Assembly: GCF_041146345.1 (NCBI RefSeq)
Contig: NW_027191415.1
Coordinates: forward strand, 1,116,001-1,180,000
Source of the DNA: Neodothiora populina
Taxonomy: Eukaryota
Length of the DNA: 64,000 nt
Direction of reading: 5' to 3'
Below, piece by piece: positions 9,730 to 64,000 of this stretch. Under the pieces are notes generated by a model. The model did not search any database and was not told the DNA's origin. It worked only from the letters and a program-made list of their open reading frames with translations. A program made the position numbers and the translations under genes. Each line of letters starts with the position of its first letter. Position 1 is the stretch's first letter.

Positions 9730-9780
9730 CTTTTCTCAGACTCTATTAGCGCTCTCCCATCTGCCTAGGAGGACCTACGG

Positions 9781-22418: not shown

Positions 22419-22576
22419 TAAAGGAGCTCAATGTTAGTTAATGACTTCTCAATAAATGGTCGATGAGTCCCTAATCGACAGTCGATGAACCTCTCGTGAA
22501 AAGTCAATGAGTTTTGAGTTAACAGTCAGTGAAATTGCAATGAATAGTCAATGACTTTCCGATGAATGGTCAACGA
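22419..22576 (+). repeat. 22-bp-period array, forward, with terminal motif
   Basis: Units start at 22441, 22463, 22485, 22507, 22529, 22551, 22573 (exact 22-bp phase); preceded by TA-TA-AAGGAGCTC. Confidence 0.9.
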
Positions 22577-23484
22577 TGGAAAACGAGTTCCTCTGTAGTA
22601 GAAATCTCATTCAGTAGCGGGCGACGCGACTTTCTATCAAGGCGACCATGTTCCCAGCAAGGAAACAGACGCGACGGCAAACTAAAAAGAAAATCGCTCC
22701 ATGAGCTGCTGCCACCCACTGACTCGTGGGTTTCACATGCAGTCGGGTCGACTTGACTTTGACCGTGGGACTCGAAAATCTGACGCAACGTGTGTAGATC
22801 ATACAGTGACAGGGTGTGCTTTGCAGATCATCATACTCGACCGACCGAAATACCGACCTACCGACTCTCAGGTTCATGGCAGTCAGCCAGCCCAGCCAGC
22901 CATACCACGTCGCCGCAAGAGGGAGGGAACATGATGAATCCGTGCATCCGTTTCTTTGGTGTCCTTGCCCCACCCGTCCCATCCATCCACATCAATTGAC
23001 CCTCGCTCTCCACCCTCGCCTTCCCTGTTCGGCTCGTGACTTCCGAACGCCAATAAATCGCAAGGGTAGCACCTAGATTAAAAATGTGGAAATTGGTACA
23101 AGGTCACGATGTAAAATGCAGAGGAAGGGGAATCGTATCTGTAGGAGACTGCCTGGGTACCGTATGTATATGTATACGGAGCGCGCCGCAGTATCCTATC
23201 TTTCGGCATCTCCGTCGATATGCGCTCTTTGTTCTCGCCGAGGTATAAGGAGAGAAAGAGATTATGAATTCGAACAGCAGAGCAGGGTGCACGAGTAATG
23301 TCATGGCATCTTCGCAATCGACAGAAGTCTAAATTATCAAATACCCTCGAAGATCACCAGATTGCCATGGTTGACCCGATCTCGATATGAATCGAAAAAA
23401 GAGTATCTGACGTGCTCTTGCGAGAGTGCGAGGGAGGGGCCTGAAAAGAGAACCACGACTCGTACACAAAGGAACTCGTTCTTA

Positions 23485-23679
23485 GGCATTGACCATTTAC
23501 TGGGGAGTGATTGACAGTTCATGCGCTAGTCCTCGCCATTGGTTCATTGACAATTCATGCGCTATTCATTCACTGCTCGCTGAAGAGTCATTGACCATTC
23601 ATTCGGGAATCGAAGACCCTTCATGGAGGAGTCATTGCATATTCATTGTGGAGTCGTTGATCAAATCCAAGCTCCTTCG
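23485..23679 (-). repeat. 22-bp-period array, reverse, with terminal motif
   Basis: Unit ends at 23489, 23511, 23533, then (after one 14-bp step) 23547, 23569, 23591, 23613, 23635, 23657. Confidence 0.88.
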
Positions 23680-23906
23680 TAGTCAGTCGCCGACAGAAAA
23701 GCTTGGATAGCAGCAGCATTGATGATCACACACGAATTTGGGATCTATTTCGGCCGTGGAGAATAAACTTCAAGTCGTGGGGGTGAGGGCGATTATCATA
23801 TCAATCTGATCATTGTTCTACTGAATCCTGCTCGCTTGCTTCATTAAAAACGCCTCGCTCATCTAATTATACTTATTTGCTCAAAGCTCGTGGGCGGTTC
23901 GTTCTT

Positions 23907-25236
23907 CTAGACCTCGTCGTCCAGTTCCATACCCATAAGGTAGCTATGCGAGTCAGCAGATGAATTGCAAAATAAGGGGGTGGCTTACCCTTCGTGGATA
24001 CGCATAAACTTGGCGACGAACGCCTCGAGATGGAATATGACTTTCTGTTCGCTGTCAGCTGCACATCAGGCAGAATCGGGGTGGTGGACTGACGCTTCCA
24101 TTGCGAATACGATGCTCATAAAACGCAGCCCATTTCACGATTTCTGCTCTAAGCCATTCGTCGATCTTGGGCAAGAGTTTAAACGTCAGGGTCTAGTATA
24201 GTCTTGTCAGAGAAGTGGTTCGGTTGGCTCAGGGGGGAAACATACCTTTAGAATGACCGTGGCGGGAATGCAGTGTGTCAACAAGTCGTAAAGCTTCGCT
24301 CTGACTTGCAGTATCCTGGCTGGGGTGTGCTCGTCAATAATGTCTTGGGCGATCTGAGATATCAATGCTTCCCAGTCCGGTGGCGGGATGGGGGTTTTCT
24401 CATTGACTTGCTCACTGCGAGGCAAGGTCAGCTGTTGCTTTGGTGACCTGCTTAACAATACCACATACTTTTGCGCGTGCACTGCTTCAAACATCAGGAG
24501 GGCGCGCCTCAGATTGCGACCGCTCTCCACGGCGATTCTTCTTTCTAATGCTTCGCTTCGTGGGTAGTTTTCTTTCTTGCCTACTTTGGCCAAGACATCG
24601 CAGATCTGGTCTTCGGTGGGTGCAGCGACTCTCACCAACAACGTTCGACTGCGGATAGGGGCAATGATATTGCTTGTGCTGTTGGCCAGCAGAATAAGAC
24701 GGAGATTGGGACTGTATTTCTCCATTGTGCGTCTCAGAGCAGCCTGGGCGTCTCTGGTGAGATGATCTGCCTCGTTGATGACGACAACCTTGAATCGCTG
24801 TTTTGCATTGAGATCGACTTGTTGTGTTTGTGCCACCTCTTTCAGCAGATCCTGAACGACGACTCTGTCGTAATTTCCGACATCGCTGGGAGTGATTTCG
24901 AGGTGGTAGTTGGACGAGACGATGTTGAATTCGAGTTTGCGGTTGCTGGTGGTTTGGAAGACACGAGCGTCAATCTTGATTTTCTCCACACCAGGTCCAT
25001 ATAGAGCTCTCAATGTGGCTGTGATGCGTGTCTTTTTGCCTGCTCCAGATGGACCATAGATCAAGAGATGTGGAAAGTCGCCGCTTTGTGCCTTGAGAGG
25101 AGGTGGCTTGTCAGTGTGGTGACTTTGGGAGGAGAAAAAACGGTCTTACCAGAGCTCGGAGTCTGTCTGATAAATCATGATGATACGTCAAGGCTTCGAG
25201 AGAGCGAGGACGGTGTTTATCGACGAGTAGAGACAT
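23907..25236 (-). CDS. RFC5: Replication factor C subunit 5 (yeast RFC5, human RFC3); 5 introns
   Basis: MSLLVDKHRPRSL, GDFPHLLIYGPSGAGKKT, NEADHLTRDAQAALRRTMEKY, KVIFHLEAFVAKFM; introns 25092-25149, 24415-24468, 24193-24245, 24045-24093, 23944-23988. Confidence 0.96.
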
Positions 25237-25638
25237 GATGATGGCGATGATGTGTTGGTGGTGGATGAATTGTTCAGTTTCTGTCTCTTTCTCTCAAGCA
25301 GCAGCAGATGGCGGACGCGTTCAAATGAGGCAAGAGCGCGTTCCACTTTACGCGACGTCACCACGCGCTCACCTTGGCGGGGCTTTCCTCATTGAGAGCA
25401 TCTGTTACACCTCACATTTTGATATATACGTTCCAAGACCGACTCGCATGCAGGCGTGTGAATGTATGTCAGTCGGCATTCGTGTAAGATCTTTGATGTA
25501 AACAAGACAGCAGACAGCTTATCAGACTTCGATCTCGGTCCGCAGTGTTGCGCCATGTCCCAAACCAAGTCCCCATGACAAAATCATAAATCATTATTCC
25601 ACATCATGTTCATCGTAGCTCATTGACGCAAAAGAAAA

Positions 25639-26088
25639 TCACTCTAGATTGCCACCCATCCTCAACGCCGCCTCCTCAGCATCCACCACTCCAGACTCAA
25701 TCAGGGCAAAGACTTCCTCCAGCACAAAAATGTCCCTCCACATGACTTCGGCCCAGGTCTGCAAGTCGCCAAAGTCCTTGAGCGCCTCGGTCGCAGAGGC
25801 CATCATTTTCTCCGAGTCGTCGGCTTTGTGTTTGAGTATTGAAGTCTGTCGATCCAGGTACCGAATGTCGTTTGACAAGTCGCTGGATGACAAGGTCTCG
25901 TCGCTCGTTGTGGGAGATGTGCTGACGGGACAAGAGGGTTGAGAGGGGTTCAGTATTGCCTGGAGGGCTGACTTTGCATCTGCATGTCTTTGTTGTGAAA
26001 AGCCATCTGGCGACGAGGTTTGTATCGGCATCGAGCCATTCGTGTAAGCGGCACCTTGCTTCCATGAAGAGATCCAAGGCCAAGGCAT
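25639..26088 (-). CDS. BLOC-1 subunit 1 (BLOS1/GCN5L1)-like protein
   Basis: ALKDFGDLQTWAEVMWRDIFVLEE resembles the LKEIGDVQNWAE.LE.D family motif; short coiled coil. Confidence 0.75.
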   Translation of the reverse strand: MPWPWISSWKQGAAYTNGSMPIQTSSPDGFSQQRHADAKSALQAILNPSQPSCPVSTSPTTSDETLSSSDLSNDIRYLDRQTSILKHKADDSEKMMASATEALKDFGDLQTWAEVMWRDIFVLEEVFALIESGVVDAEEAALRMGGNLE

Positions 26089-27308
26089 TTTATTTTGGTT
26101 CTGTCAAGAGATGCGACGAGCAATGGCGAGGATGCACTGCGTGAATATATATTCAAAAATTGGTAGCACAAAGAAAATAGCTAGATACATGACTCTTGTC
26201 TCTCCGGCTCGTGAGTATGTGTCTGCCTTGGAACACAGCGCATATGGCACTGTCCTGTCCATCCCATTGGTTCACGCGGTCTTGGACTCCGGTGCTGAGG
26301 TGGCATTTTTACCCCCACCCTCCATCAATGCAGGGCTTACCTGCAGTCAGTGTGATTTAGATTAATTTAGATCGGTCACACGGAAGAAGAGCTTGGATGA
26401 ATCAAGAAGTAAAGACGCTCCTGACCTTTTGGCTGTCTAGTATCAGTTGGCAAGCAGGCAATATGAATCATTTTCGGGAAAGAGTGCAAGTGGCTGATAC
26501 TTAATCCATAACCTCACTGCCGGGCCATCCACCGCATGCTCGGCATTCACACCGTACACTATACCATGTGTCGATACCCCGCAGCAGCCGGGCAGCAAGA
26601 CCTGTATTTTATCCTCCGACGATCAGAGAAAAAGAAGACTCGTGCAGCATCGTGGTATCTTTATAATCAAAAGACACGGAGATTCAGCTACAGTAGTAGG
26701 CAATCACGCGAGTCAATCAATCATATCTCCAATGATGTGGAGAATCCCTGTTCCTTTTTCCCCTCCCGTTCGAGCCTGCTACTGTACCCTTGTCTCTAGT
26801 ACGTTTCTTCCCCCTCCTTCACGCCACTTTTTGTTGTTGATCAGTGACCTCACCAGGGCGTTTTGGAACCTTGGGGGTCGTTCGGTGACTTGTTTCATAG
26901 CTTGTGGTTTTTGATGGACGTTGACTGTGAAATGTAATGGTCTGTTTTTCTCGTCTTAGCAAGACTGTTCCTCTGCATTCAAGCTTCTGTTGTCGTTGAT
27001 ATCATACTTGCGACGCCTGTCGTACGCTGAAGCATTACTGTGTCGATTGTCGTGTGGCAAAAGAGCTGCGTCAAGAGCTGCTGACCGCGAAGGCGAGCTG
27101 CGCCCTTCGAACACGTGGTTTTGTTTTCAGCGCGACTCCATATTCCAGAGCGAGGATAAATAGTCAGACGAACATAAGCAGGCTCATACACAGGTGTTGT
27201 GAGATCAAGTGTTACTCACCAGAGACCTGGCTGTTTCAAAAGGCGTCTATTGTACGGACACGATCCTGCGACACTCATACCAGAAGTTGAAGAAAGGCAC
27301 AAGCCATC

Positions 27309-28484
27309 ATGAAGTTCACCAGAAGACAAATCGCCACGACCCTGAGCGTCATAGTAAGAGCGAACCTCAAAGACAGCCTTTCCTGTAGATCTAGCTGATG
27401 AAAACCACAGTACCTCGCTGTAATGACAGCGCTAGCTGCGTGAGTGATATAAATCAGCCTCTTCGTCTACAGCAGTCCATGGCAGCTAATAATCATTTTC
27501 GACTAACCCATTGACAAGCTACGCCCTCCACCAGTCCCATCACTACGCCGTACCCATAAGCTCAACACTCACATCCCTAACCCTGGCCCTTCCCCTCCTG
27601 GCAGGTCTAAGTCTCGAGACATCGACCGCGCTGGCCCGCTCCCTATCGACATCCAAAAAGTTCCGGCACCGGCACGCATCGAACATCCCCGCGGTGCTGC
27701 TGCCCTCGACCCTAACAGTGCTAGGTCTGCTCATGTACACGACCGTCGTCGCGACACTAGCAGGGACGCACATCTCGCCCGTCGGCGGCCTGAGCTGCGC
27801 CCTGCGAGAGAAATGGCAGAGCCTGTTCCGCGACAAGAACGGTAACCAGTTACGTCAGATCCAGGACGGGCTCGAGTGCTGTGGTTTTCGCACCGTGCGT
27901 GACATGCCGTTTCCGTTTCCTGCAGCTGGCAGAGGTGTCGGCGTCGACGAGTGTACGCGGTTGTGGCCTGAGCGGCTGCATAGGAGCTGTGAGGCTGGAT
28001 GGAGGGGCGTGGAAAGGACTAGTGCGGGGTGTATCCTCGCTGTTGCGATCGGGACGTTTTTCTGGATGGTGAGCCCCCCTTTGATTTTCTTTCTACACAC
28101 GAGACCTAACCCGGCATCAAGGCGATAATAGTAGCCATCCCAGCAATCCACCCGACGTGGGCGCGCGACTCTCTCCGTCTCTCATCCTCGTCCGCATCCT
28201 CCAAACCCCGCAACGCAGCCCTGCTCGAAGCAGCAACAGGAGGAAACTACGACGGCGCAAACGACGCCGAAGACCAGCACCGCAGAATCACAGATTACAA
28301 CGATGACGACGAAATCGACGAGGAGCCCTATAGAGATAACCCTGCCGAGACAGAGCAGGATCGGCAGGATCGTCTGCGCGAGATCGCGGCGTTGAATAAT
28401 GATTCGAGACTTGCGCTCCAGGTCGAGTCGAGTCGCGAACATCATCCTTCGAGACTTATGCGTGAGGTTGGGGATAGGGAGTGA
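27309..28484 (+). CDS. Fungal tetraspanin (Tsp3-like); introns 27354-27410, 27440-27518, 28069-28121
   Basis: Four hydrophobic segments, IQDGLECCGF motif, acidic C-terminal tail; all exons join in frame. Confidence 0.8.
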
Positions 28485-29162: not shown

Positions 29163-32100
29163 CTAGAAATGGATGACGTTGCCCAAACCATCCCCGAGTC
29201 CAGTGACTAAGTCACCGAGGCCCTCGCCGAGGTCGTTCAGCAAGTTGTCGGCTTCTTGAGTGGTCTCGCCGACGAAGCTCAGGACGGGCTTAACGACACC
29301 GTAGAGGTTGATGGCGGGAACAGAGCCAGTGGGAAGTTGGATGTAGATGGTCGAGGTCACCGTTGTGGCTGCTCCTACGCTCGCGGTAGATGTACCGCAC
29401 ATCAGGACGGCGCCGCAGAAGCTGATGCTCTCGGTAGGTAGAGTCAAGGGATCGCTGATGGGCAGAGGCGTGACGGATGGCACAGTTGTTGGAAGCGCGA
29501 GGGCAGAAGAAGGAACGCCAGCTACAATGCTGCTGACAATACCGGAGAGGTCAGAGGAAAGAGAAGACAGCTGTGCGCCGATAGCCACGCTAGGCAGGCT
29601 GAAGGAAGGAAGAGTTGCGCTGGCGCTGATTCCAGAGGCAATGGCGGAAATCTCAGACTGAATCGAACTGACTTGGGCAGTGGGCAATGTGATGCTCAAG
29701 CTTGGAAGTAGTGTAGGAAGAGCGAGTACACTCGAGACGTCTCCAGCCAAGGACGAAATCTCTGCACCGATACTAGGCAGGGCAGGAAGAGTCTCACTCG
29801 GGAGAGCAATCGTGGGAAGAGTAACGCTGGGAAGGCCAACACTAGGAAGACCAAGACTAGGAAGGGTGACGCTGGGAACACCCGACAGAGCAGCCGACAA
29901 CTGAGACGACAAGGCCGCAATATCAGAGGTAGGAACAGTAAAGCTAGGCAGGGTAGCACTGGCCTGAATACCGCTGATGAGGCTGGAAATGTCGGACTGG
30001 ATTCCTCCCAGAGATCCTGTGGGAAGGGTAAGACTGAGCGAAGGAACTGCAGTAGGCAGAGCAAGGACGCTAGTGATCTCGGCAGAAAGCGAACCAAGAG
30101 CAGCAGTAGCGCTGGAGGGGTCAAGACTAGGAAGGGCAATGCTAGGCAATGCTGCACTGGGAAGACCAGACTCAATGCTTGCGAGTGCAGAAGACAGAGC
30201 ACCGACTTGAAGCGAAGGCAAGGTGAATGCAGGGAGTGTGGCACTGGCACTGATGCCGCTGAGGAGACTGCTAGCATCGGCCGCGATACTGCTGAGTAGA
30301 GCGGTAGGGACAGCCAAAGACAGGCTAGGGTCAATGGTGGGGAGTGCGAGAAGGCTGGTAGCTTCGGAGACGAGATTTCCGAGGTTGGAAGTGGCAGCAC
30401 CAATGACTGCGCTACCAGCTGGGAGACTTGCACCAGCAATGACGCTAGAGACCTGTGCACCCAGAGAAGAGATCGCTGCAGTTGGGACGACAAATCCAGG
30501 GAGAGTTGCGCTGGCAACGACACCACTCTCAACGCTAGAGAGCTGACTGGCCAGAGAAGACAACGCACCAGTGGGAAGTCCAAGAGTTGGTAGAGCGAGG
30601 ACGGCGCTGACATCGGATGCAGCGTTGCCCAATGCCGACGTCGCGCTGGCTACAGCAGGATCAAGATTGGGGAGTGTTGCTCCAGCCAAAACGCTTGAAA
30701 ATTGTGCGGATAGAGACGACAACTCGCCTGTGGGTAGAGCGAACCCAGGAAGACTTGCGCTCGCGACGATGCTGGACAATTGGGACTGTAGGCTGCTCAA
30801 TGCAGATGGTACAACACCAGTGGCTGTAGGGATCGCAGCACCAATCGCAGAGGTAAGGCTTCCGGCCTCAGCAGTGGCGGCTGCGAGGATCGAAGATTGC
30901 GCACCGGGAAGTCCGCTAACGATAGCGCCGACCTGGCTCTGGATCGAAGACAATTCCAACGTCGGCAAGCTTGGGAGGAGCGTATTCGATCCCAGAGCGC
31001 CAGTAATGCTCGTCAACTCGTTGGACAAGATGCTCAATTGGGGAACGTTAACAGAAACACCCGCGCTGACGGTCGGCAGGGCAAGCAAGCTCGTAACTTC
31101 AGAGATGAGGCTGCCAGCTTGGGAGGTGGCGCTGGCAACAGCGGCGCCCACAGTGCTCTGAACACCAGCAGCAACCACAGACACCTCAGAACTGATGGAG
31201 GACAGAATCGAGACGGGAAGAGGTGTAACACCTGCCAAGATAGCACTCTGGACGCTTGAGAGCTGGCCAGAGATGCCAGAAAGCTGCGGAGTTGGGACAC
31301 CGACAGCAACGCCTAAGCTCACGCTAGGAAGAGCGAGCAAACTGCTCACTTGGGAAGCAAGAACTGCCGCATCCGATGACGCGGCCGAGGCAGCAGAACC
31401 AACGGCGGCACCGGCGTTGTTACCGAGCCCGGATGCAGCGCTAGAGACCTGAGCAGCAACACTGGAGATGGCGGCGGTAGGAGCAGTGAATCCAGGCAAT
31501 GTTGCGCTGACTGCGACGCCAGATAAGATGCTAGAAAGCTGAGCGCTGATTGACGCCACAGCAGATGTGGGAAGAGCGACTCCGGGCAATGTAGCACCAG
31601 CAGCGACACCGCTGGCCAAGCTGGAGAATTGCGAGATGACACTAGATAGTGCGGCAGTAGGCAGAGCCACAGCAGTGGGGGGGATTGTTACGCCCGCAGC
31701 AATGCTGGAAACTTGGGCGGCGACACTCGAAATGGCTGCAGTCGGCACAGTGAAGCCTGGCAAGGTCGCGCTCGCCGAGATGCCCGATATGATGCTGGAG
31801 AATTGTGCACCAGCAGACGCAACAGCAGAGGCTGGGGCCGCAGTACCAACGCTAGCGAGACTGGACAGTTGAGAAGCGAGACCAGACAGAGCCGAAGTTG
31901 GAGCTGCAATCCCGATGGATGGAAGACTGAGAGTAGGAAGATTAATGGTAGGAACACTGAGACTAGGCAGGCCGACACCGGGGAGGCTGAGAGTAGGCAG
32001 CTGTGCAGCGACACTCGAGACTTGAGCGGCGACACTAGAGATTGCGGCGGTAGGTGCAGTGAAGCTTGGTAGGGTTGCACTGGCCGCAACACCAGAAATA

Positions 32101-33235
32101 ATGCTCGATAGTTGTGCGCTAGCTGATGAAACAGCGGCCGAAGGAGCACCCGCGGCAGCAAGGCTAGAAATCTGGGAGGCAAGGCCAGAGAGAGCCGAGG
32201 TTGGAGCTGCGACTACGATAGACGGAATGCTGAAGGTAGGTAAAGCAACACTCGCGCCCGGAACGCTGAGGGTAGGAAGAGCAATGCTGACGCTAGGGAC
32301 GCTGAGAGTAGGAAGAGTGACGCTGGCACCAGGAATGCTCAGAGTGGGAAGACCGAGGGTAGGGAGCTGTGCAGCAACACTCGAGACCTGAGCAGCGACA
32401 CTAGAGATTGCAGCCGTGGGTGCGGTAAAGCTCGGTAAGGTTGCACTGGCCGCAACACCAGAAAGAATGCTAGATAGTTGTTTGCTAGCAGATGAAACCG
32501 CGGCCGAAGGGGCACCCGCGGCAGCGAGGCTAGAGATCTGAGAGGCAAGACCAGATAGAGCCGAAGTTGGAGCTGCAACCGCAATCGACGGGATGCTGAA
32601 CGTAGGAACGCTGACAGCAGGGATACTGAGAGTAGGAAGCTGTGCAGCCGCACTCGAAACCTGAGCTGCCACATTGGAAATTGCAGCCGTAGGTGCAGTG
32701 AAGCTCGGCAAGGTCGCGCTTGCTGCAACACCGGACAGTATGCTAGAGAGCTGTGCGCTAGCTGCAGAAACAACAGACGAGGGTGCACCAGCAGAAGCAA
32801 CGCTAGACAGCTGAGAAGCAAGACTAGACAAGGCCGCGGTTGGAGCTGCAATTGCAATAGAGGGAAGGGTTGGAAGAGCCCCCAGAGAAAGAGTCGGAAC
32901 GCGAACACTGAGCTGCGAGCTGAGCGATGACAGAGCTGGCGCTATCGACGAGGTTGGAAGAGCAGCAGCGACTGTGACGATGGAGATCTGGGTGGTAGTA
33001 GAAACAGCCGCACTTTTGACTGTCAGTAAATGTGAGTTATGGTAGGTTCTTTCAGTTCATACCAAGTTGAAGCACCTATAGAGACGGAAACTGGCGCCAC
33101 ACTTGCTTTGCTGCTCGAGGATAATCCGAGGAGGGCGCCGAGAAGTTGACGGCGTTCATTGTTTGCATATCTTTCTGCTGGGAGAGCAAAGACTTCCAGC
33201 ACGAAGAGTGCGGTCGGTAGCCAAGTGATGCGCAT
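29163..33235 (-). CDS. 1340-aa secreted Ser/Ala/Leu/Pro-rich repetitive protein; intron 33013-33062
   Basis: Signal peptide MRITWLPTALFVLEVFA, dibasic NERR site, many PT-A(L/I)SS(L/V)ASQ(L/I/V)SS repeats with SATLPxFT linkers; splicing keeps the frame into ORF 29163..32831. Confidence 0.88.
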
Positions 33236-43698: not shown

Positions 43699-44359
43699 GC
43701 CAATTCATAGACCTACAGTCGCCATATACCGCAATTTCGATTCCAAACTAAAATCAATATTGTTCAGCCACAACGGCCTGCCTCTAGAAAAAGACAATGC
43801 TAAGCTGATGTGGAACGGGCGTTGTCCAGCACGTACATGGGGCTACGAGTGTACAGGAGTTTCCATTCGATGGCCAGGCGTCAGAGGATATATACTATCA
43901 TACATGCTTGCAGTCTTGCATAGCGTCGGTTGCTTTTTTTTCTTTTCTTTTTTTCTATGGGCGCAATTCCATTTCCATTTCCATCCGTCCTTGTAAGCAA
44001 TCAAAATGTACCTATTTTCAAGTTCTCGTTGTCCCAGGTTTCTGTCTGCCTGGGTAAAAGCTAGGCGGTAGCTAGTAGACCAAAGGGGAAGGTGTGACCG
44101 CCACAGGACTTCTTGACTCTAGCATCTCGTTCGCCAATGCCACAACGCAGTTGCCTCTCTTTGTTCCTCATCGGCAGGCTCCTCGATCCCTTCTTGATAG
44201 TAGAGGAAAGAGCGACTCGTCCGGGTAGACTGGCTGTTGATCTACTACTACCTGCAGTATTGCAATACCCTTCTTTTCAAATGATTCATGGACACGATTC
44301 GGTGTCCCATACCCATCAGTATGCGGATAAAAAAGGTTTACCATTTGCTAAGTAGTTTT

Positions 44360-44491
44360 TGGCCAGTCATCCAGGAGTCATCGATCTGTCATTGAAGACT
44401 CATCGACTATGCTACAGAAATTCGTCGACTATTCGTTGTAGACTCAGCGACTATTCATTGTGGAGTCATTGACTAATCATGAGCTTCTTGA
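44360..44491 (-). repeat. 22-bp-period array, reverse, with terminal motif
   Basis: Unit ends at 44381, 44403, 44425, 44447, 44469; then GAGCTTCTT-GA-TA (44481-44493). Confidence 0.9.
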
Positions 44492-44796
44492 TACCGCATA
44501 TTGACGGGACCGTGGAGGACATGGATGCCTGGGTTCTATGGACCGACGTTCCCTCAGCTCTGGGAGCTCTGTGAGCTGTCTAGCGTTCCCTTGTATTCAC
44601 ACCCATTTTTTCTGATTTTTCCCTTGTATCTAATTCTAACCCCCAGCCAATCAAGACGCCGACGAAAGGTAATCCATAAACTTGCACACGATGTCTCTAT
44701 CTCAGCTCTGCTCGCAAGGTCCAGCCTGGCGGAGCGAGAAACTAAAAGACCCCGAAGTTCGAAAAAAAGGAAACAACAGAGTCACAAAGTAAACCC

Positions 44797-48304: not shown

Positions 48305-48561
48305 CTTTTGTCGTTGACGTGCAAGAGAGGACTTAGAGCGTAGGGTCAAGGCGGTAGAGTGGACGTTTAGAGATTAGCGGTGAAGGAGAGAAGGCCGAGG
48401 TGTTGGTATAATAAGCAAAACAACAACAACATGCTTCGGAGATTGCGGAAGTCGTCGATTCGGCACCTCGGTGCAGCCTTGTCTATATTGCTTGACCTCA
48501 GCATTACTTCATTTGTGACTGTCCGACAATTCATGTCACGTTTACAAAGGACATCGTTTTT

Positions 48562-48780
48562 GGTCATTGACCATTCAGAGTGGGGTCATAGGAAACTGAT
48601 CAACTGTCCTTAAAATTTTCATTGACTGCTTATTACGGAGTCTTTGCCTGTTGAGTAGAAAGACATTGCCTGTTGAACAGAAAGTCGCTCCTTGTTCACA
48701 AAGAACTCATTACTTATGCATAGGGAACTTCTTGTCAATTCATTGAAAAGTCATTGACTGAATAAAAACGAAACCCTTTG
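48562..48780 (-). repeat. 22-bp-period array, reverse
   Basis: Unit ends at 48567, 48589, then (after an 11-bp step) 48600, 48622, 48644, 48666, 48688, 48710, 48732, 48754; outer GAAACCCTT-TG-TA (48770-48782). Confidence 0.85.
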
Positions 48781-49041
48781 TAGCTGGAAGGGATGTCCAT
48801 GGAATGCGACTTTCTACTCGGTCGTGCGAGATGCGACACAATTCAAGGCGCAATGAACTTTTAATCAAGACAAAAAAAAAATCTAAATCACTAATGTTGA
48901 ATAATGACTGCGAATAAACATCCGCGTCACACAATGCAATGCGCGAGACTAGACCAGCTAGATCACGCACTGCCTTTTCCTAAGCGACTTGCTCGAATAC
49001 TAGCCCTGCCAGAGGACTGACTGCTAGATCATGCTCTACTT

Positions 49042-51012
49042 TCACGAGCTACAACCACAAAACCAAGTTGAGCATCTGTGTCTGGACCGGCCATTCTGGT
49101 TGGCGTGATTGCGTCCTCCAATACCTCTGTCTTCATTTGCACTCGTACGGCCGCCCTCAGACAAGGGTGAACCATCAGTGAAATGAGACTCAGCAGTGTC
49201 GACCGAGGAAGCATTTCGCACATGCAACTTTCCCTTCTTGATAACAAACTTCTTGCTGACGAACCCAGGCGGTGTCGTTGGAGCCAGCCGCATCGGTGGC
49301 TTGGGAGCCTGTCGAGGGGTAGTGAACCATTCACTACTGCCAGTGGTGCTTTCGTGGAGAGTGAGGGGCTTACTGATCAGTGAATGGCATGATTTGCTGG
49401 CGGCAGTCGAGACCGGATTGTCAACGACTTCCCTGGACTGATCAGCGGCGATAGGTGTGACGCCTTTAGGGGGATTGGAACCGAGTGGGCGAGGATGGTT
49501 GTGACGAGCCATCAATTCCAAGCTAGCAGTTTCACGAGTTGCTCTGGAGTCAAGGACGGGTGAGGCGTACGAAGAGACAGGCTGTGATGAGCCTGCCTTT
49601 CTTTCACGAGAACGTCTTATCTCCATGTTTGCGACGACGTTACCGTCCCTGGGAAAAGTGACCAACGAACTGCCCATGTCAGGGACGAGGTTCTGAGGGA
49701 CACAGAAATCGTTGCCTAGCAGTAATCTTGTGGGCATGGACTGACAGATGTGACAGATCTGAGTGACATTAGTATACGTGATGCCTCCACCTTTACACGC
49801 ACTCCGCCTTGCTGGAACGTATAAATTCATAATAACACACTGCGAAGAACTCACGCTAGATCCGGTGATTAATGTGTAATCGAGAGACCTTCTAGCCTTG
49901 TATCGATGAGCGTAGGAAAGGTGTTGCAGAAGCCAGGATTCACTTACTAGGCTGGTTGAGGCACTTGTGTCGAGACAAGCAACCACGGGTGCGCTATTGA
50001 GTGAGAGCTGAACGTAGGTGTCCATGGAGAAACAGGTGTTGTAGGCACCAACATGGTCAATGCGGACATTCGATACAACAACCTCACGTGAAGTTGGACC
50101 GATCTGTCGACTCTCTCGATGAACTATCACTCTCCTCACTGCAGTACGTGAAGTTCTGTAGGGTAGCGTGAGCGAGATCTGTACGTCGGCGATTGAACGC
50201 GCAGGCACAACACGGGTCGAACCAAAGATACCAGGCCCCAGGGAGATGTCAGGAGCGATGATGATGAATACGTGATGCTGAGGATCCAGCCCACGCGATG
50301 GGGCACCACCATGCTCACCCTGCTTCACAGATGATGTTGAGCGTTGTAGAAGGGGAAAGTCTGGGTTTTTGTAGCCGTCCAGCTCAATCTGCGCATTACC
50401 ACATCTCCCCAGAACGGCAGTCATCGTAGGCAACAAGATGGAAACTCGTTGTGTCTCGATAAAGCCTGTGCCCAGCAGGATTGCAACCCCTCGGGGCAGG
50501 CCAATGTCGCGAACGAACAACACTGTCATGGTTTTGGCCAATGCATGTTGTCCGTTCTTCTCACAAGGAAGAAAAAGCGTCGCTACCACGTACTGGCTGG
50601 TGGCCACGAGGCCTGAGGCGGTACCAGATTCCAACGGAACAGAAACCTGCCTGATGTCAGAAGAATTGAAGTTGGTCTTTGCTTGGTAGGAGGAAATGAA
50701 GGAAGCACAAGAGGCTGTATCGAAGCAAGCAATCGTGTTCTCGCCCACAGTCTCACGCAACTTCACCTCGGCAGTGACCAACGAATGCGTGCAGTAGCTC
50801 GCCTCGATGTGTTTTGTGCCGGGGGCGGTGGATTCGATGATGCGACTACGGGAGACGGAGGATGTGTAAAGATGAGGACTACCTCTAGGCTGCGGGATGT
50901 CAAATTCGGCGGGAGGCGAGATAGAGGGGGTGGCTACAGACTCACCATCGTTGAAAGTGTCGACGAGGACAGGCTTGGAGATTACAAGAGAGCAGGACCG
51001 CGACTAGACCTT
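49042..51012 (-). CDS. ORF with two tandem retropepsin-like aspartic protease domains; start unresolved, possibly a pseudogene
   Basis: ACFDTASCASFIS..ILLGTGFI and ACLDTSASTSLVS..LLLGNDFC match the Ty3/gypsy-type protease pattern. Frame is open from 51012 with no early ATG; no RT or integrase follows. Confidence 0.65.
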
Positions 51013-51790
51013 CTACCAGAGAGGCGACGGGTCATGCTCTTGAATGTTTTGTGAATAGAACCTTGTCTCTCCATTGCGCCGTTAGTTCTCCCAGCACTAT
51101 GAGTCGAATGTTTCCTGTGAGTGAAATTGGGTAGTCGGCCAGAAGTTTATGCGATAGTGTCTCGACGGTGACCTAATCTCTGTTGTTAGTGCACCAAAGG
51201 TCGTCGTCCGGGTCCAGATGAAGAGAAGTGTTGTGAGACCTGTGTTTATATCCTACCTTGAGGGCCTCGACGTGTTGCCTTTGTTCTCTTTGATATGGTC
51301 TAGACACAAAGGCTACATCGTAGAACAACGCCATGATTGTCTTTCACTGTGCGTGACAAAGGGCGCATGACAAAAGGCGCAACGAACAATGCCACTACCT
51401 CGACTTTTGCGCCTTGACAAAGCTTGATCAAGGTAAGGTAGCCTATGCAAATACCTGAGAAAGCCTTACACAAACCAACCGTTGCGATTGCCGCGATACG
51501 ACTATCATATCCGAAGCGTCGCTTCTTTATCCTCGATCTCAACACAGCAACACGCACCATCACACCTCTTTTCAAGCATGATCCCCAACTTCAGCTGCTT
51601 ACCCAAGGGTTGGATGACTCCAGACACGCCACAAAGACACCCAGACTCATGCCCCGGCGGATGTGTAGTACACAGGGGCTCTCATTATCTTCTGTTGATA
51701 GTAATAAGGCATTGGGAGACCTCAAGGTTATCTATCAAATGCTCGGAGAAGTCTAGTTTCTTGGAGGTAGGCAACAGTCACGCTCTACTA

Positions 51791-51978
51791 CAGAGGGGCT
51801 CCTCTTTCTCGTTGTTGGTAGAGAAATCCTCAACGAGTAGTCGGTGACTCCCCACTGAGTGGTTAAGAATTCCTAATGAGTAGTCGATAAGTCTCCGATT
51901 AAGGTTCAATGATTTCGTAGTGAATAGTCGATGGCTCTCCAATCAAAGCTTAATGAATTCATGGCGAATAGCCAATCA
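51791..51978 (+). repeat. 22-bp-period array, forward, with Tc1-like terminus
   Basis: Units start at 51822, 51844, 51866, 51887, 51909, 51931, 51953, 51975; upstream TA-CAGAGGGGCTC (51789-51801). Confidence 0.88.
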
Positions 51979-52110
51979 TATTTGCCTCAACAACGAACTT
52001 GGATCGTCGCGTTGGCAAGTCACAGGAACCAAAAAACTACTAGTCGAGGGATAATGCACGTAGGAAGTCCGTAAGTCGTTAGCTTTCCGTTTGATTAGAG
52101 GCTAGTCACC

Positions 52111-53105
52111 CTATGAAGGCTTCTGGTACCCGTCAACATCAGTGCTGTTGGACAGCTTCTCAAACTTCTTGACGCTCTCTCTGTACGTGTCAAGCTTGCC
52201 GTTGATGGCGGCATACGCGTCTGTACCGACAACGCAGCGCAAGGGAGGGTCTTTCATGACAGCCAGTTCTGGAAAACGTTAGCAACTCCGTCTTCACAAT
52301 TCTCATGATATTAAGAGCGAAGAAAAGGAGCTCACCATAGAACGCCAGCGCACCCTTATGCGGATCGCCGGCCTGAGTACCATTCCTCTCGCCCATCTGC
52401 TTCTTCGCATCAATATGATCATAAGCCGCACACTTCTCCTCTCCGAAATCCATGCTTCTGCCGGCCCAGTCGGTCCTGAAACCACCAGGTTCGATGCACG
52501 TGAACTTGATGCCCCACTCGGGCTTGACCTCTTGGCTGATGGCTTCGGTGAAGCCCTCGACAGCCCACTTCGAGGCGCAGTAGACGCTGAAGATAGGCAC
52601 GCCGCGCTGGCCGCCGATGGAGGTGACTTGTTGGATCACGCCTCCCGGGGGCGAGTTGCGCTCGCGCATGATCTGCATGGCTTTGCGGGTACAGTCTAGG
52701 AGGCCGAAGAAATTGATTTCCATCTTTTTGTTTCGGGACATTAGTATCTTATAAGAAAAGAGAAATGCAGGTAAGAGAGAGGAAATGAAATACCTGTGTC
52801 CTGATCTGCTTCTCACTGAGACTTTCAAACTCGCCGCCGAGGCCGTACCCAGCATTGTTAACCACGACGTCGATGCGACCAAAGTGCTCATATGCCGTCT
52901 CAAAGGCCTTTTCGATTGACTCTTTCTTCGTCACGTCGAGGTCGACGGCGAGATAGTTCTTGTCTGTTGCGCCTTCTGGCGGCGAGAGTTTGGACGAGTT
53001 GCGTGCTGTGGCGCATACGCTGTCGCCCTTGGAGATGGCGATCTTGGTCAGTTCGAGGCCGAAGCCTGTGCTGGTTCCTGTGATGAAGAAGACGCGGGGA
53101 GACAT
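52111..53105 (-). CDS. Short-chain dehydrogenase/reductase; introns 52724-52793, 52269-52335
   Basis: TGTSTGFG, DVVVNNAGYG, YCASK, IEPGGFRTDW. Confidence 0.95.
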
Positions 53106-53668
53106 TTTTCCTGTGTTTCTTTTCTGTTGTCAAAAGAAAGAGCTGTCCGTCTTCTCTATCTACTCTATATATACCTGCCCATCATCATGTTGCATTGAGT
53201 TCACCCATCGACGTCAGTAAGACCGGGGGTAACGGACATTAGCCCGACGACGACAATACCCCAACTTTTTGACTTCCTACAGATATCTTATCGGTCGTAG
53301 TACAAAGTGTATGTGCCGGCGGCAGCAGCAACGATGATGAACGATGCATACACAGGAAGCGGGATACTATTCGATCATCTCGAACCTTTTTTTCCTATGT
53401 CTCGTGGTGACGTTTGTATGTCATCAAGTCTTCCCAGAAGGCCACCTCAGCTCAGCTAGCAGAGTGCGCCTGCTCTTGCCTGGCCTGGGGAACTCGACAA
53501 CTCCGAGGATTTGCGTACATTATTTCGATGCCACTGTCCTGCAAATAGCAAAGAAATGGCCAATCGTGGGAGTGGGAGCGGGAGCGGGAGCGTTGCCAAT
53601 TTACCATACGTAAAACATCAATACTCTGCACCGTCAAACGAATCGCCTGCTACAATGGAGCCGTCGTT

Positions 53669-53850
53669 AGTCATTGACCATTTACTGGGTCGTCTTTGAG
53701 TAGTCATTGGCCAATCATGGACGAGTCGTTGACCTTTCAGTAAGTATCTATCAGCAATTCATCAAGGACTCGTGGACTGTTCATCAGGAAGTCGTTGACT
53801 ATCCTGCCAAGACTTATCGACTATTCATTGGAATCTCATTGATATTTACG
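53669..53850 (-). repeat. 22-bp-period array, reverse
   Basis: Unit ends at 53674, 53696, then (after an 11-bp step) 53707, 53729, 53751, 53773, 53795, 53817, 53839. Confidence 0.9.
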
Positions 53851-53941
53851 ATTGCAACGATGCTTGCTCGTCGTCGAATCCGATCCAAATGAAAATGACT
53901 TGAAATCATAAAACTCGATTAAGAGATCGAAGCTGCCCCGT

Positions 53942-58599: not shown

Positions 58600-59342
58600 A
58601 TGATATCCCATTACGTCGATTGCTGGAACCGTGTTTCTAACAGGTCTCTGTCCAGGAGTATGATGCTCTTCATAGCTCAACTGCATCGAGGGCATCGACG
58701 CATTTGAGTATTATACAACGCGTGGCGTGAGGGGCTGGCTGCAGTCTGTGTTCACGAAGCGAGACTGAATTCGACTCGAATGTCTGTCTATTAACTGCGC
58801 ATGAGCAATGTACTTCGCAGCAAGGTGTTCCGCTGATGGTCCCACATCTGGCTTCAGCATATACTCTAGCTTATATAATTTAGTTTCGACGGACAAATAT
58901 GTTCCATAGGGTTGACTTGAACAAGGACATCCCTGCTTAGGAAGACGCAAAATACTCGCCAGCAGCATCAGAGTGAACTGATATTCTCATATCCTCTGAC
59001 ATTAGGAATTCCAAGGTCTTTCTTAAGGCATCGTCTGTGACCTCTTCCAGAGCAATCACAAATGAAGGGCCAGCGTGATTGCATCCGTAGACATTTGCAA
59101 ATTGCGTCTTCGCGGATGCAGGGACAGATTTCTCAATTTTCCAAGGCGACACCCTCCCCACTGGTTGTAGAGCTGCATGCTTTGTTAGAACTTACGATCC
59201 GGTTATATTGAAGCATGATTAAAAGGAGCTTGAAGCAACATCCACCGGACTCCTCGTTCACTTTGTGCCATTCTTGTCCTGGAGCACTTCCATTTGTCCA
59301 TGCTGAGCTGTTGATCATATTTGTTGAGTAGTAACTAGCCAT
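58600..59342 (-). pseudogene. Degenerate coding remnant, possibly BTB/POZ-type
   Basis: Overlapping broken ORFs with IALEEVTDDALRKTLEFL, KLYKLEY and YEEHHTPGQRPVRNTV; weak resemblance only. Confidence 0.3.
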
Positions 59343-59403
59343 TCGATCCTTATGTTATTGATCAATCTTTCTTCTGCTTACCTTGAGAATATACTAAGGA
59401 GAA

Positions 59404-59519
59404 TGACCGTTTACCGGGCGGTCGTTAGCTAGTCATCAATGAGTCATTTATCATTGACCGAAGACTGATTGACGAATCATTCAGGACTGGGCAGTCATTG
59501 GCCAAGAACGAGTCCTTTA
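59404..59519 (-). repeat. 22-bp-period array, reverse, with terminal motif
   Basis: Unit ends at 59425, 59447, 59469, 59491; first unit tgaccgtttaccggg; outer GAGTCCTT-TA-TA (59510-59521). Confidence 0.85.
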
Positions 59520-59810
59520 TAGCCAGTGTTTCTCGACGATTGTTTTGGCTTGACAAAGGGTAAGGTGTGGCGCAGTAAACCGTTGTAGTATTCGTCCGAT
59601 CTCTAGCCTGTTAGAGGTAATTTGGTTTCCCCTCTTCACGACGTCATGGTCCACTCACGTCAGTAAAACTCTCGTCCCGCTTGTACCTTACAGAAGTAGG
59701 ACCATTCACGTATATGACCCCCAGATCCACTTGTGCTGATCTCTCCACGTCTTCAATAATAACAACCTACCAATTATACAAGTACAGACCACACAAAAAC
59801 ATCCGGCAAT

Positions 59811-60249
59811 ATGTACATTCCCACTCCCCAGAGCATCCTCACCGCTGGCATGGCCCTATCGGGTGCTATGATCAAGCGTGCGTATCGCCACTATCTTCTG
59901 GTCTGTTACAGGTCAACTAATTCATCAATCAGCCTCCTCCGTTGCATCCGGCAAGATCCTTGACTTTGCTGTCGAGAAGTGTATCGACGCCGATGGCAAT
60001 CAGCGTTGCAGCAAGCCGTTCCTTGTAACAAAGTCTACTTGCTACAACATTGAGTGGACCACCGAGGGAAGACTTTCACACACAACAGTCGAGGTGCGCG
60101 ATGCAGGCAGTGATGAGCTCGTTTTCTACCGTGATACCGACGGTGAATGGACACCCGAGAAGGGCGAGTTGGTCTACCTTGACTTCAAGCCCAAGGTCTG
60201 GAAGACTGGCAACGACACTGTGGAGTACAAGGTCAAGACTTGCGAGTAA
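59811..60249 (+). CDS. Small (127 aa) probably secreted 4-Cys protein; intron 59878-59932
   Basis: GTGCGT..CTAAT..CAG intron joins MYIPTPQSILTAGMALSGAMIK-P-SSVASGKILDFAVEKC in frame. Confidence 0.8.
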
Positions 60250-60941
60250 AGTGTTGAGCAGCATATTGTGTTCTTTGCATGTCTCAATTGAATGGGTTTC
60301 ACTGGAGTCTGGATTTGCATTGCTCAGCCGCGAAGCATTCTAAATAGCCCGTTCAATTTTAAGATGACTGTTATCTCGTACTTGTAATATGTGCATACTG
60401 TGTATGCCACTGTTCACATCAACTCCATACACGTCTCTATCTTGGACTATCATCTGAACAAACTCTTGAGCATGTCTGTCGTCTTCGTCCTTGCTGTAAA
60501 CTGCTGTCTTGAGCAAGGTGTTTTGCCTGCCATCGGGGTAGTTTCCCCGGATCTACTGACATCATCGTTAAGCAGACCCTTGAAGCCAAAAGTCTCATTT
60601 CTTTTAGTCAAGGCCTTTCCTTCTTCGGGCATTCGCACCGACTTCTAACACGAGCTTCTGGAGCAACATTTCCATCATGTAATATCCGCCTGTTTGACAC
60701 ACTCAAAACCCCATCTCTTCTACAAATCATCGTCATCGACTGCTATTTGTGCCTGTAAATCCGCTTCTGCTCCAAAACGCTCGGCGGGCTCGCCATTAGA
60801 TGAAAAACTTATTGGTAGGTGAGGTGATACAATGTAGGTGCTCTGTCTGCACGTTCTCTGCTTTCTCCTTGTCTGTTCGAAAAACAGAGAATCAATGCTG
60901 CGACTACCATTTTAACAAATGGCACTCCCAGTCTGTTCCTT

Positions 60942-62662
60942 ATGACCTGTGATCACGAACTGGAGCTGCCTTTGATGTCCAATTTTGTCGCACTGCAAGA
61001 ACCTGTCGACATGGATCATAAGACTGGTGAAAAGGTAGAGGAGCTGTCCTGGAATGGCGACAATGATTCGCAGAACCCGATGAATTGGCCTTCTGCCAAA
61101 AAGTGGACGGTAATGCTGACGGCGACTTTCATGTGAGCTTCTTCATGGAACCACAAAGCATGCATCCGTCACTGATTAAATATGATAGTATGTTCGTGGT
61201 AGAATTGAATGCAACCTCAATCACATCTGCGGCAGTCGAAATCAACGAGATATTCTCCGTCTCGGACGACAGCTTTCCCAATAGCTACTGGCCTGTGACC
61301 TCGTGGACTTTCGCCGGCGCCATCTTTCCCATCATCCTTACTCCCATCATTGAAGATCGTGGCACGCGTCCAGGATTTCTTCTGACTTATGTTCTCTTTG
61401 CGCTTTTCGTGATTCCACAAGCAGTGGCTCACAACTTTGCTACGCTCATCGTTACACGCGCTGTAAGTGGAGCTTGTGGCGCAACGATAGCAGCGATTGT
61501 TGATGGCATTGCGGCCGATCTGTGGACGGAAGAAGGCGAGAGAGGCCGAGCAGTCACCGTGTATACCTTCGCTCTTGTGGGCGGATACACAGTAGGACCA
61601 GTCATTGGTGGAGCTGTCATCAGTGAACTTGGCTGGAGATGGATCTTCTACATCCAGCTAATCATCTACTTTTCGCTTCTGCCGCTTCTTTATCTTGTGC
61701 TTCAGGAAACAAGAAGCCCGGTCGTACTGACGGCGCTGGCACGTAAGCTACGGCAGGAACCACCTGGTCGACAGATCTACTCGCCCGCAGAATTGGCATC
61801 GACGAGTACATGGCAAGACCTGAAAGAAGGTCTGGTACGACCGACACAGCTCCTGTTCACTGAGCCTGTTCTAGCAAGCTTCACCCTCTGGTCTGCGTTC
61901 ACTCTCGGCATGATCTTTGTTTTCACGCAGTCTATCCCCCAAGTCTACACCGGATTGTATGACTGGTCGTCGTCCTCGACAGGCGTTGTTCAGATTGCAG
62001 TCTTTATCGGTCAATTCATTGGCTTTGTTGCCTGCTGGATTGCCAACGACATATACATACGCCGAAATCGCGCACCTCACAGCGATGCAAGGCTTGAGAC
62101 CCGTCTCTATCTCTCTATCCCGTCAACAATATTCGCCTTGTCCGGCGGCTTCTTTGTGTATGCATGGACCTCTTCGACTTCGTCTATTCACTGGATTCTT
62201 CCTACTCTCGGCCTCGCTCTTGTCGGCTTCGCCTCGATGGTGATTGTCACGGCTGTCGACATTTACATCACCGACTCGTACGCTAAATATGCGGGCTCAG
62301 CCATAGCGGCAGTCACATTTGGTGAAAACACGTTCAGTGCGTTCCTTCCTCTTGCGACACAGAGCATGTATTCCACGCTAGGCTTTCCATGGGCGAGCAG
62401 TCTGCTGGGGTTCGTTGGGCTGGCACTGGTGGTGGCGCCTATTGTTCTTGTCTGGAAAGGAGAGGCAGTCAGAGGGAGGAGTCGATTCATGAGTACTGGT
62501 CAATTGCTAGGGAGCAAAGCCGAAGAAGACGGCATGGACAGAGACGCACCATCACGTCCAAACCTGGCTCCTGTCGCTCAGAGGAAGAGCAACGAGACAG
62601 ACGATGCGAGTGTGTCTTCGTCGCGGACGTTGGTAGGTAACACGGCGATGGCTACAGTATAG
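60942..62662 (+). CDS. MFS drug:H+ antiporter (DHA1-like); intron 61133-61188; start uncertain
   Basis: WNGDNDSQNPMNWPSAKKW, GPVIGG..GWRWIF, ETR, RPTQLLFTEP, YITDSYAKYAGSAIAA. Confidence 0.92.
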
Positions 62663-62846
62663 AGCACACAATCTTACAATTTTCATCTTCAATCATTAAC
62701 GAAGTTCTCTGAAGTGATGTTACAGAGACGCGACACCCCCTACCTTTGACTAATGCGTTACTGCCTCCCGAGGCTCGACAATCGCTCGACTTGCGCATGC
62801 ACACACCCAGACTCACCTACCGATCAGGTCCCTCGTTTAGTACGCT

Positions 62847-62965
62847 AAGGGCCTCGTTATTGGGCAATGACTCCTAAATGAATAATCCATGAGTCCCTGA
62901 TGAATGGTAGATGAGTCCCTGGTAAATAGTCCATGAGTCCCTGATGAAGAGTCGATGACTTCTTA
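62847..62965 (+). repeat. 22-bp-period array, forward (best conserved copy)
   Basis: Units start at 62867, 62889, 62911, 62933, 62955; ATGAGTCCCTG occurs three times; upstream AAGGGCCTC at 62847. Confidence 0.95.
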
Positions 62966-63041
62966 AAGGCACGCAGCTGGACTTTGCCGTATCTCAAGAA
63001 TTTGCTACCACGAAACATGACTGTGACATCTCCAGAGGTCC

Positions 63042-63498
63042 TTAACGATGGGCCGCTAGTGCCTGGAGTCTTGCCATCTCGGTGCTGGTGCCCTGCTTTT
63101 CCAGTGTTTCAGCGAGGTCAGCGTTTGTGTTGGCCAGCGCGTCGATGGTCCCATCTCTGGTCCAGACAGTGTCATGGGATTGCTGCAAACCCGCCTGCAA
63201 CTGGGCATTCAAGTTCCCCTGTGCGTCGACTGCCTCTTGGGCATCGCGGCGAGCTCTCTCCACCTGCGCGTCATTGTCCGTCTTTGCTTGTGACAAGCTG
63301 CAAGCCTCTTATTGTGGCGTTGGCATCGGCGAGCTTTGTCCGCAGCTGACGGTTGGCATGCTCAATCGTTCTAGCCGACTCCGCAGCTCTGACAGCAACT
63401 TCGTACTCCCTACGTCTAGGTATCATCTGTCCATCGATCCACTGATCGGCAGCTGGTGGAGGGCGTGCGCTGCGAGAAGCTTGAGGTCAAGATGCCAT
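63042..63498 (-). pseudogene. Orphan coiled-coil pseudogene between two arrays
   Basis: ATG GCA TCT TGA (stop at codon 4), then coiled-coil-like sequence with a frameshift near 63300 into ORF 63042..63296. Confidence 0.5.
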
Positions 63499-63663
63499 TG
63501 TGTTGTGATCAAAAGCACGAATCACTGATCAAAGAATTCAAGGTAACGTGATTGATATATCTTTATGGTGATCTTGAGGTCTTTGAAAGCAAAGTTTTTG
63601 AAAGCGAGGAAAGAAAAGCGTGATCAAAAGATATTATAGCCGAGTTCACAGCCTCAAGTGCAG

Positions 63664-63772
63664 CATAGTCGACGAGTCCCTGCTGATAAGTCAATGAGTC
63701 TACTGGCATAAATGGCCAATGACTACTATATGACTACCGGGTCAATAGTCAATCACTAAAGTCGAGCTCCTT
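63664..63772 (+). repeat. 22-bp-period array, forward, degenerate
   Basis: Units start at 63672, 63694, 63719, 63730, 63752; GAGCTCCTT at 63764-63772. Confidence 0.8.
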
Positions 63773-64000
63773 CAATACATTACAGTGCTATTGAGAAGAC
63801 TGGATCAAGAATGTGAACCTAGTGATAGCGTCGAGATGCAGGAATAATCTGTACCTTGATTGTAGCTACTCGATATGGCTCAGGCATAATCAATGCCGTC
63901 GCAGCGACATTCTGTCAAGCATGCGTAGCCGCAGACCGCAAGGTCCGAAAACGAAAGGTTCACATCTTTGGCGTCGACATCATCATTCCATCAAGAATGT

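Follow-up and report, generated by a model that had tools for sequence, protein, structure and literature searches.

Short TA-flanked elements built on an 11/22-bp phased lattice in Neodothiora populina: a probable family of degenerate miniature inverted-repeat transposable elements

The stretch of DNA analysed here, hereafter called the window, comprises 64,000 nucleotides of the genome of Neodothiora populina (assembly GCF_041146345.1, contig NW_027191415.1, positions 1,116,001 to 1,180,000 of the forward strand), and all coordinates below are those of the window. Pfam searches of its long open reading frames (ORFs) identified Vps39, Fung_rhodopsin, RFC, bromodomain, Utp12, metacaspase, SDR, two MFS transporters and TauD, and the window is a gene-dense stretch of a filamentous ascomycete. 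The Utp12 protein shows 71% identity to that of Delphinella strobiligena and 56-58% identity to Aureobasidium proteins, which makes the host a Dothideales-type Dothideomycete. Dispersed among these genes are nine arrays of diverged 22-bp units, each made of two 11-bp halves, which a preliminary description had presented as a dispersed intergenic family. None of them is free-standing: each array turned out to be the interior of a longer element of 126-236 bp, bounded by terminal inverted repeats (TIRs) and the dinucleotide TA, whose ends had been missed. We consider it probable that the arrays are a degenerate, TA-targeting family of Tc1/mariner-type MITEs (miniature inverted-repeat transposable elements), in which the whole body of the element consists of ATGAsT cores set out as a lattice in 11-bp phase.

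The periodicity of the nine arrays was confirmed, the 11/22-bp signal being far above that of shuffled sequences and of the rest of the window. A sliding-window analysis (110 bp) gave seven clusters with a self-identity above 0.45 at lag 22, six of which are the arrays at 22.4, 23.5, 44.3, 48.5, 53.65 and 62.8 kb, the seventh being a two-position blip at 44740; at lags 20 and 23 the value never rose above 0.45. Against 500 dinucleotide shuffles per array, the z-scores of all nine arrays were 3.3-9.3 at lag 22 and 1.7-6.0 at lag 11, and lag-22 identity was 0.40-0.73 in the arrays versus a maximum of 0.383 in 385 control 150-bp windows outside them. The 22-bp consensus proposed earlier was recovered independently by TRF, which gives ATGAATAGTCCATGAGTCCCTG with period 22 at 22524, 44426, 53758 and 62878. 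The arrays are also related to each other in sequence. Leave-one-out nhmmer profiles recovered 9/9 arrays in the orientation first assigned to them (E values from 4e-27 to 4.5e-11), and a profile search of the window returned nothing further at E<0.01 except opposite-strand self-matches within the nine copies. No copy was found by nhmmer between 23.7 and 44.3 kb, where none had been seen before. The long words said to be common to distant arrays were also found, as an 18-mer common to the 23.49- and 53.67-kb arrays and a 16-mer common to the 23.64- and 44.45-kb arrays, and GTCAATGACT occurs five times in the window, every time within an array.

When all copies and their flanking sequences were aligned in a common orientation, conserved termini emerged, in which TA is followed by CAAAGGAGCTCGTTnTTGGTCAATGAC at the 5' end and GGTCAATGAnnnAAACGAGTTCCTTTG is followed by TA at the 3' end; the two termini are mutually inverted repeats. 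The TIRs are about 27 bp long, with the consensus CAAAGGAGCTCGTTTTTGGTCAATGAC. An ungapped scan of the window with the 27-nt consensus gave 11 matches at at least 18/27, whereas 100 Markov-shuffled windows gave 1.07 on average and 5 at most. All but one of these matches lie at array edges and point inward, and the ten ends concerned match the consensus at 19-24 of 27 positions. TA lies directly outside six of the ten best ends (window TA frequency 0.037, P ~5e-7), and gapped placement puts TA on both sides of six of the nine elements; no longer duplication extending past TA is visible in the element flanks. In addition, an inverted-repeat search independent of the consensus detected a 24-nt pair at a48567R, 48543-48566 and 48759-48782, with 79% complementarity. 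The nine elements are as follows.

22419-22595, plus strand: a22441F, 177 bp, complete; TA at 22417-22418 and 22596-22597; TIRs TAAAGGAGCTCAAT... and ...AACGAGTTCCTCTG, matching the consensus at 21/27 and 20/27; one 11-bp register throughout; lag-22 z 9.3.
23465-23679, minus strand: a23489R, 215 bp; TIRs 22/27 and 21/27; one internal phase shift of +3; TA at 23680-23681, the other TA (23463-23464) directly outside a CA dinucleotide that precedes CAAAGG.
44330-44491, minus strand: a44360R, 162 bp; TA at 44328-44329 and 44492-44493.
48545-48780, minus strand: a48567R, 236 bp; TA at 48543-48544 and 48781-48782; TIRs 24/27 and 19/27.
51791-52007, plus strand: a51822F, about 217 bp; TA at 51789-51790 beside the left TIR; right end decayed and its boundary approximate; one phase shift of -1.
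53653-53866, minus strand: a53674R, about 214 bp; TIR with TA at 53651-53652; other end decayed and its boundary approximate; a single register over 165 bp.
59394-59519, minus strand: a59404R, 126 bp, the shortest; TA at 59392-59393 and 59520-59521; the only full TGASTCA heptamer of the family.
62843-62989, plus strand: a62867F, 147 bp; TA at 62841-62842 and 62990-62991; lag-22 identity 0.73; the most regular array, with nine in-register half-units, three of them identical (ATGAGTCCCTG).
63650-63775, plus strand: a63672F, about 126 bp; one TIR ending at 63774-63775, with TA one base beyond; left end decayed.

The anatomy of the unit was examined by cutting the arrays by register only, with no score filter, which yielded 106 eleven-mers. 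Their mean pairwise identity in register is 0.50. Positions 1-4 are A (75%), T (80%), G (79%) and A (92%), position 6 is T in 75% and position 10 is C in 63%, and the other positions are nearly free. Two types of half-unit, ATGAsTCyyyn and ATGAATrGTCr, alternate to give the 22-bp unit, and 22-mers within an element are 54% identical when compared in the same phase versus 43% in half phase. The palindrome GTCAWTGAC lies at the junction of the half-unit types, and all six of its occurrences in the window are within elements. The nearly exact phase described earlier is borne out: the ATGA cores hold one mod-11 register from end to end in five elements, over up to 176 bp, and the remaining elements show single shifts of -1 or +3, except a59404R, which has two shifts. 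The phase breaks of one half-unit (A-A) were found at 48589/48600, 53696/53707 and 63719/63730, as were those of 14, 21 and 25 bp, the last corresponding to 36 minus 11. Wherever a copy has a clear end, the distance between the tip and the first core is 21-26 nt; therefore, the TIR itself is one unit of the lattice.

A possible trace of insertion is preserved at a44360R. Its flanks, 44312-44326 and 44494-44508, were detected by the same consensus-independent search as inverted complements of 15 nt (87%). When the element is removed, its own flanks join into a palindrome closing on a single TA, CCCATCAGTATGCGGA-TA-CCGCATATTGACGGG. It is plausible from this reconstruction that the palindromic site was the original target, and flanks forming so nearly perfect a palindrome are compatible with an element that favours palindromic TA sites.

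Further copies exist on other contigs. When source-like assembly contigs were compared with 44.0-64.0 kb of the window at at least 80% identity, at least six additional contig records aligned, and only to parts of elements. A near-full-length paralogue of a48567R on another contig is 83% identical (38 differences in 227 positions) and matches 48543-48769; the alignment extends from the TA at one TIR to a point 13 bp before the TA at the opposite TIR. Three sequencing runs were compared, none of them a second strain: one is probably the source, another comes from the same sample, and the third belongs to a different study and contributes a tiny share. None is recorded as RNA. Run X2 behaves like poly-A cDNA; its spliced joints and A-tails were used for gene ends only. 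The same paralogue of a48567R is present in an X2 contig, and mRNAs therefore contain copies of the family. Of the 25 differences scored between the two paralogues, core positions account for 9, versus 11.4 expected (P=0.23, one pair and a small sample). Judged from this alignment, the differences appear to be spread evenly over the unit positions, as would be expected for neutral decay after insertion. The earlier statement that spacing is conserved above sequence holds as a description. In the only paralogous pair open to comparison the cores are not spared, and this pair therefore gives no evidence of in-place selection on the motif.

Relatives were also sought outside this genome. Twelve metagenome fungal loci with Utp12 orthologues (about 120 kb) contained no lag-11/22 peak above 0.45, no cluster of position weight matrix hits and no nhmmer match at E<1; these loci, at 41-56% protein identity, are too distant for an empty-site comparison. 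A metagenome pattern scan with GTCAATGACTYYNNNATGAATRGTC, a pattern that fits two of the 11 window arrays, gave 0 matches.

The elements combine several of the features by which MITEs are recognised, namely TIRs, a TA target-site duplication, and short, non-coding sequence dispersed in many copies (nine copies and two marginal ones in 64 kb); searches with Pfam, Rfam and ARAGORN found no coding capacity, Rfam family or tRNA in them. We would place the family among the Tc1/mariner/pogo ('Stowaway-like') elements because of the TA duplication and the TIR structure alone. The arrays would then be insertions of a mobile-element family and not nine independent regulatory platforms. A transposase encoded elsewhere may recognise the TIR-proximal GTCAATGAC module and mobilise the elements in trans. 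Slippage or unequal exchange might have multiplied this module in 11/22-bp steps within active master copies, which would create several putative binding sites along one face of the helix, and the copies would have inserted at TA sites in short gene-free gaps of the compact genome and then decayed. Such slippage of the TIR-proximal module in master copies is the most likely origin of the lattice, and the lattice may serve as a multi-site platform for the transposase. The preliminary description had proposed a multimeric protein-binding platform. Of that proposal, the phased and dispersed family is real and a transposase was among the binders offered, but the idea of autonomous intergenic platforms does not stand, since the arrays are the interiors of TIR-bounded, TA-flanked, MITE-like insertions.

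Several points weigh against the MITE interpretation. The TIR scan is partly circular because the consensus was derived from the same ends, and the only evidence independent of that consensus is the two inverted-repeat pairs, the TIRs of a48567R and the flanks of a44360R. The apparent empty site is an internal reconstruction at a44360R alone. Three of the nine copies (51.8, 53.7 and 63.7 kb) keep a single recognisable TIR, and the Pfam scan found no transposase gene among the 45 ORFs of the window. In addition, phase-shifting indels number about 5-7 over roughly 1,170 bp of arrays, although the units are only 50% alike, and so few indels would hardly be expected from pure neutral decay. One explanation is that the master copies already differed at the variable positions, so that the copies have a lower age than their divergence suggests; the other is that the phase is constrained, and a constraint on phasing, acting in the masters or in place, is possible.

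The kept phase bears on two further readings. It is rather improbable, in our estimate, that the lattice is the working part of the element and no mere product of slippage, with a transposase or a domesticated or host protein polymerising along the helix face from TIR to TIR and selection, acting on the masters or in place, preserving both the phase and the ATGAsT cores while the remaining sequence drifts. If so, the family, by seeding ATGA(C/G)TC clusters near many genes, could also have spread near-GCN4/CpcA-type sites through the intergenic DNA of this lineage. The GCN4/CpcA site, recognised by bZIP proteins of the AP-1 type, has the consensus ATGA(C/G)TCAT; one half-unit type has ATGA(C/G)TC in common with it, and the palindrome is left incomplete here. 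The suggestion made earlier of a bZIP-like binder of TGASTCA did not survive counting, as the nine elements (1,620 bp) contain one of the window's three full heptamers, and unit position 8, which follows ATGAsTC, reads A in 7% of the 106 units. Alternatively, the arrays could be docking sites selected by the host, in which an oligomeric transcription, boundary or origin factor binds the ATGAsT cores on one helix face and the TIR-like ends are remnants of the initial spread or part of the platform. We regard this as unlikely. It would account for a phase kept over up to 176 bp at 50% unit identity, with ATGA and T6 conserved at the frequencies given above, for the concentration of ATGASTC/GASTCAT words (13 of the 26 in the window lie in the 2.5% of its length covered by the elements), and for the position of the elements within about 50-600 bp of mapped transcript ends. 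However, their orientation and position are mixed, as some copies lie where two 3' ends converge and others upstream of start sites or within a 5' exon; the cores are not spared between the paralogues, the full AP-1/GCN4 heptamer appears once in the elements, and the 12 Utp12-orthologue loci, which come from distant fungi, have no such arrays.

Two further explanations were considered as well. The adjacent pairs at 22.4/23.5 kb and 51.8/53.7 kb, each forward and then reverse and 0.87 and 1.64 kb apart, respectively, could be read as the two arms of single foldback-like or long-TIR transposons with repeat-built arms, the solitary arrays being broken halves. This is very unlikely, because both members of the 22.4/23.5-kb pair have their own TIR and TA at both ends, the inner ends included, and the 51.8/53.7-kb pair encloses a spliced, expressed short-chain dehydrogenase gene; moreover, five of the nine copies are solitary, the units run in one direction within an element, and single-stranded DNA of the elements folds no better than shuffled sequences (z of -1.07, -1.40 and -0.08). 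Independent minisatellites, generated by slippage at each site and resembling each other by chance, would agree with the short stretches called by TRF (2-3.7 copies) and with the three identical half-units of a62867F, which look like the product of recent slippage. This explanation is already refuted, as the leave-one-out homology (E down to 4e-27) reaches into the non-repetitive ends, and the copies have 16-18-mers, TIRs and TA flanks in common.

Other known classes of element were rejected on structural grounds. A Helitron would have 5'-TC and 3'-CTRR ends and an A/T insertion site without duplication, whereas CAAAGG... and ...CCTTTG form the ends here, flanked by TA at either side. A short interspersed nuclear element (SINE), which would have a head derived from tRNA or 5S and a tail that is A-rich or a simple repeat, does not fit either, as ARAGORN and Rfam returned 0 hits, there is no tRNA-like head, and the ends are inverted repeats. 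A foldback element, whose long inverted arms of tandem repeats would fold into a long hairpin, is excluded by the one-directional units and the fold scores given above, and a hairpin or structured RNA by the same scores and 0 Rfam matches. Repeat-induced point mutation was likewise dismissed as the source of divergence, since 14 of the 28 changes tallied in the change table of run X1 are transitions, which is not the pattern that this process leaves.

Among known systems, mimp of Fusarium, reportedly described by Dufresne in 2007, is said to be a Tc1/mariner-type MITE of an ascomycete. Several subterminal transposase-binding sites are known from the inverted repeat/direct repeat (IR/DR) ends of Sleeping Beauty-type Tc1 elements, the 12-bp motifs of En/Spm, the P element, Mu and Tn7; such ends carry 2-10 irregularly spaced sites and are followed by an unrelated interior. 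By analogy with them, a short motif is repeated inward from the TIR in our elements and is plausibly bound by several transposase molecules; unlike them, the putative sites recur every 11 bp over the entire length of the element. Within fungi, EFT-9m, EFT-14m and EFT-5m of Epichloe festucae are degenerate, TA-flanked MITEs of Tc1/mariner type with 62-70% mean identity (PMC3227409). As far as the text of that paper goes, the likeness extends to the small size (126-236 bp in our family and about 80-520 bp in Epichloe), the TA duplication, the intergenic location in a compact fungal genome, the TIRs (24-61 bp there, about 27 bp here), the low identity between copies and a parent element that is often missing. 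The difference is that the whole element here is an 11/22-bp lattice of which the TIR is one unit, a distinction drawn from description and not from sequence; the text of PMC3227409 names no subrepeats, periodicity or 11-bp steps within the Epichloe MITEs, and its mentions of tandem repeats concern a masking step and a reference.

Tandem arrays within short inverted-repeat ends, dispersed between genes in many copies, are also described for BrickBuilt of Porphyromonas gingivalis, a 23-nt minisatellite between small inverted-repeat ends (PMC4596501), and for the internal-tandem-repeat MITEs Xstir of Xenopus, the (GTCY)n MITEs of insects and BIV160 of bivalves (reviewed in PMC6947457). The 23-nt unit of BrickBuilt (PMC4596501) and the 22-bp unit found here are both near two helical turns. 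In contrast to these families of bacterial and animal hosts, the units here are strongly diverged while staying in phase, and array and TIR pass into each other without a break. In the literature covered, that is, outside Repbase, Dfam and subscription journals, no fungal MITE carrying internal tandem repeats and no fungal family with this lattice was found, and none for Dothideales.

For eukaryotic MITEs the architecture is unusual, since the TIR belongs as one unit to a helically phased lattice running through the entire element, and this phase persists at about 50% unit divergence. It does not define a new class of element; it is an unusual architecture within a known kind, and offers a simple test case for the reading of multiple phased sites by a transposase. 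If 9-11 copies per 64 kb held genome-wide, the family would be a major and so far unannotated intergenic filler in a Dothideales-type fungus. So high a density would matter for repeat masking, gene prediction and promoter analysis, although the density of the window may be atypical.

With respect to the genes, gene ends from run X2 place a44360R between convergent genes, beginning 49 bp past the poly-A site of Utp12 (44281). The elements a51822F and a53674R, in inverted orientation, flank the expressed, spliced SDR gene at 52061-53080 on the minus strand (introns 52268-52336 and 52723-52794); this bracketing may have arisen by chance (1 in 4) or may reflect a composite arrangement. About 180 bp past the stop codon of an MFS gene lies a62867F. 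The copy at 63672 had been taken as intergenic, but according to run X2 it is within a transcribed exon (63409-63799) of a minus-strand gene with an intron at 63799-63855; a63672F is upstream of the apparent ATG at about 63497 and apparently in the 5' leader of that ORF. Taken together, the mixed placement and orientation fit insertions tolerated in short gene-free gaps of a compact genome. The shortest element, a59404R, lies upstream of a small gene with high coverage, and 260 bp separate its end from the start of that gene (59779). That gene, 59779-60380 on the plus strand, has a 125-codon frame with an intron at 59877-59933, an A-tail at 60380 and no Pfam match, and shows the highest contig depth in run X2 (131).

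All nine arrays of the original inventory are real, but the inventory was incomplete, as two weaker related arrays lie beyond the span that it covered.

About 6669-6818, plus strand: weak sister array with core ATGAyTGCTCA; lag-11 z 4.3; nhmmer E 0.022.
About 9779-9903, minus strand: weak sister array with core ATGAyTGCTCA; TRF period 33 (three 11-bp steps); nhmmer E 0.013.

These two arrays resemble each other (local score 15 versus a shuffle maximum of 13), have no recognisable TIR or TA, and probably constitute a sister family.

Two further ORFs of the window were noted. An unannotated 579-aa ORF at 49042-50781 gave weak aspartyl-protease-like leads only in a protein atlas search, and is irrelevant to the repeats. 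The other, a 1,297-codon open frame at 29163-33056 on the minus strand with no Pfam match, is probably a low-complexity repeat protein not related to the MITE family. It has tandem repeats of 15, 21 and 36 bp inside, with TRF rows spanning 29803-32407, and its surroundings show strong GC and AT skew.

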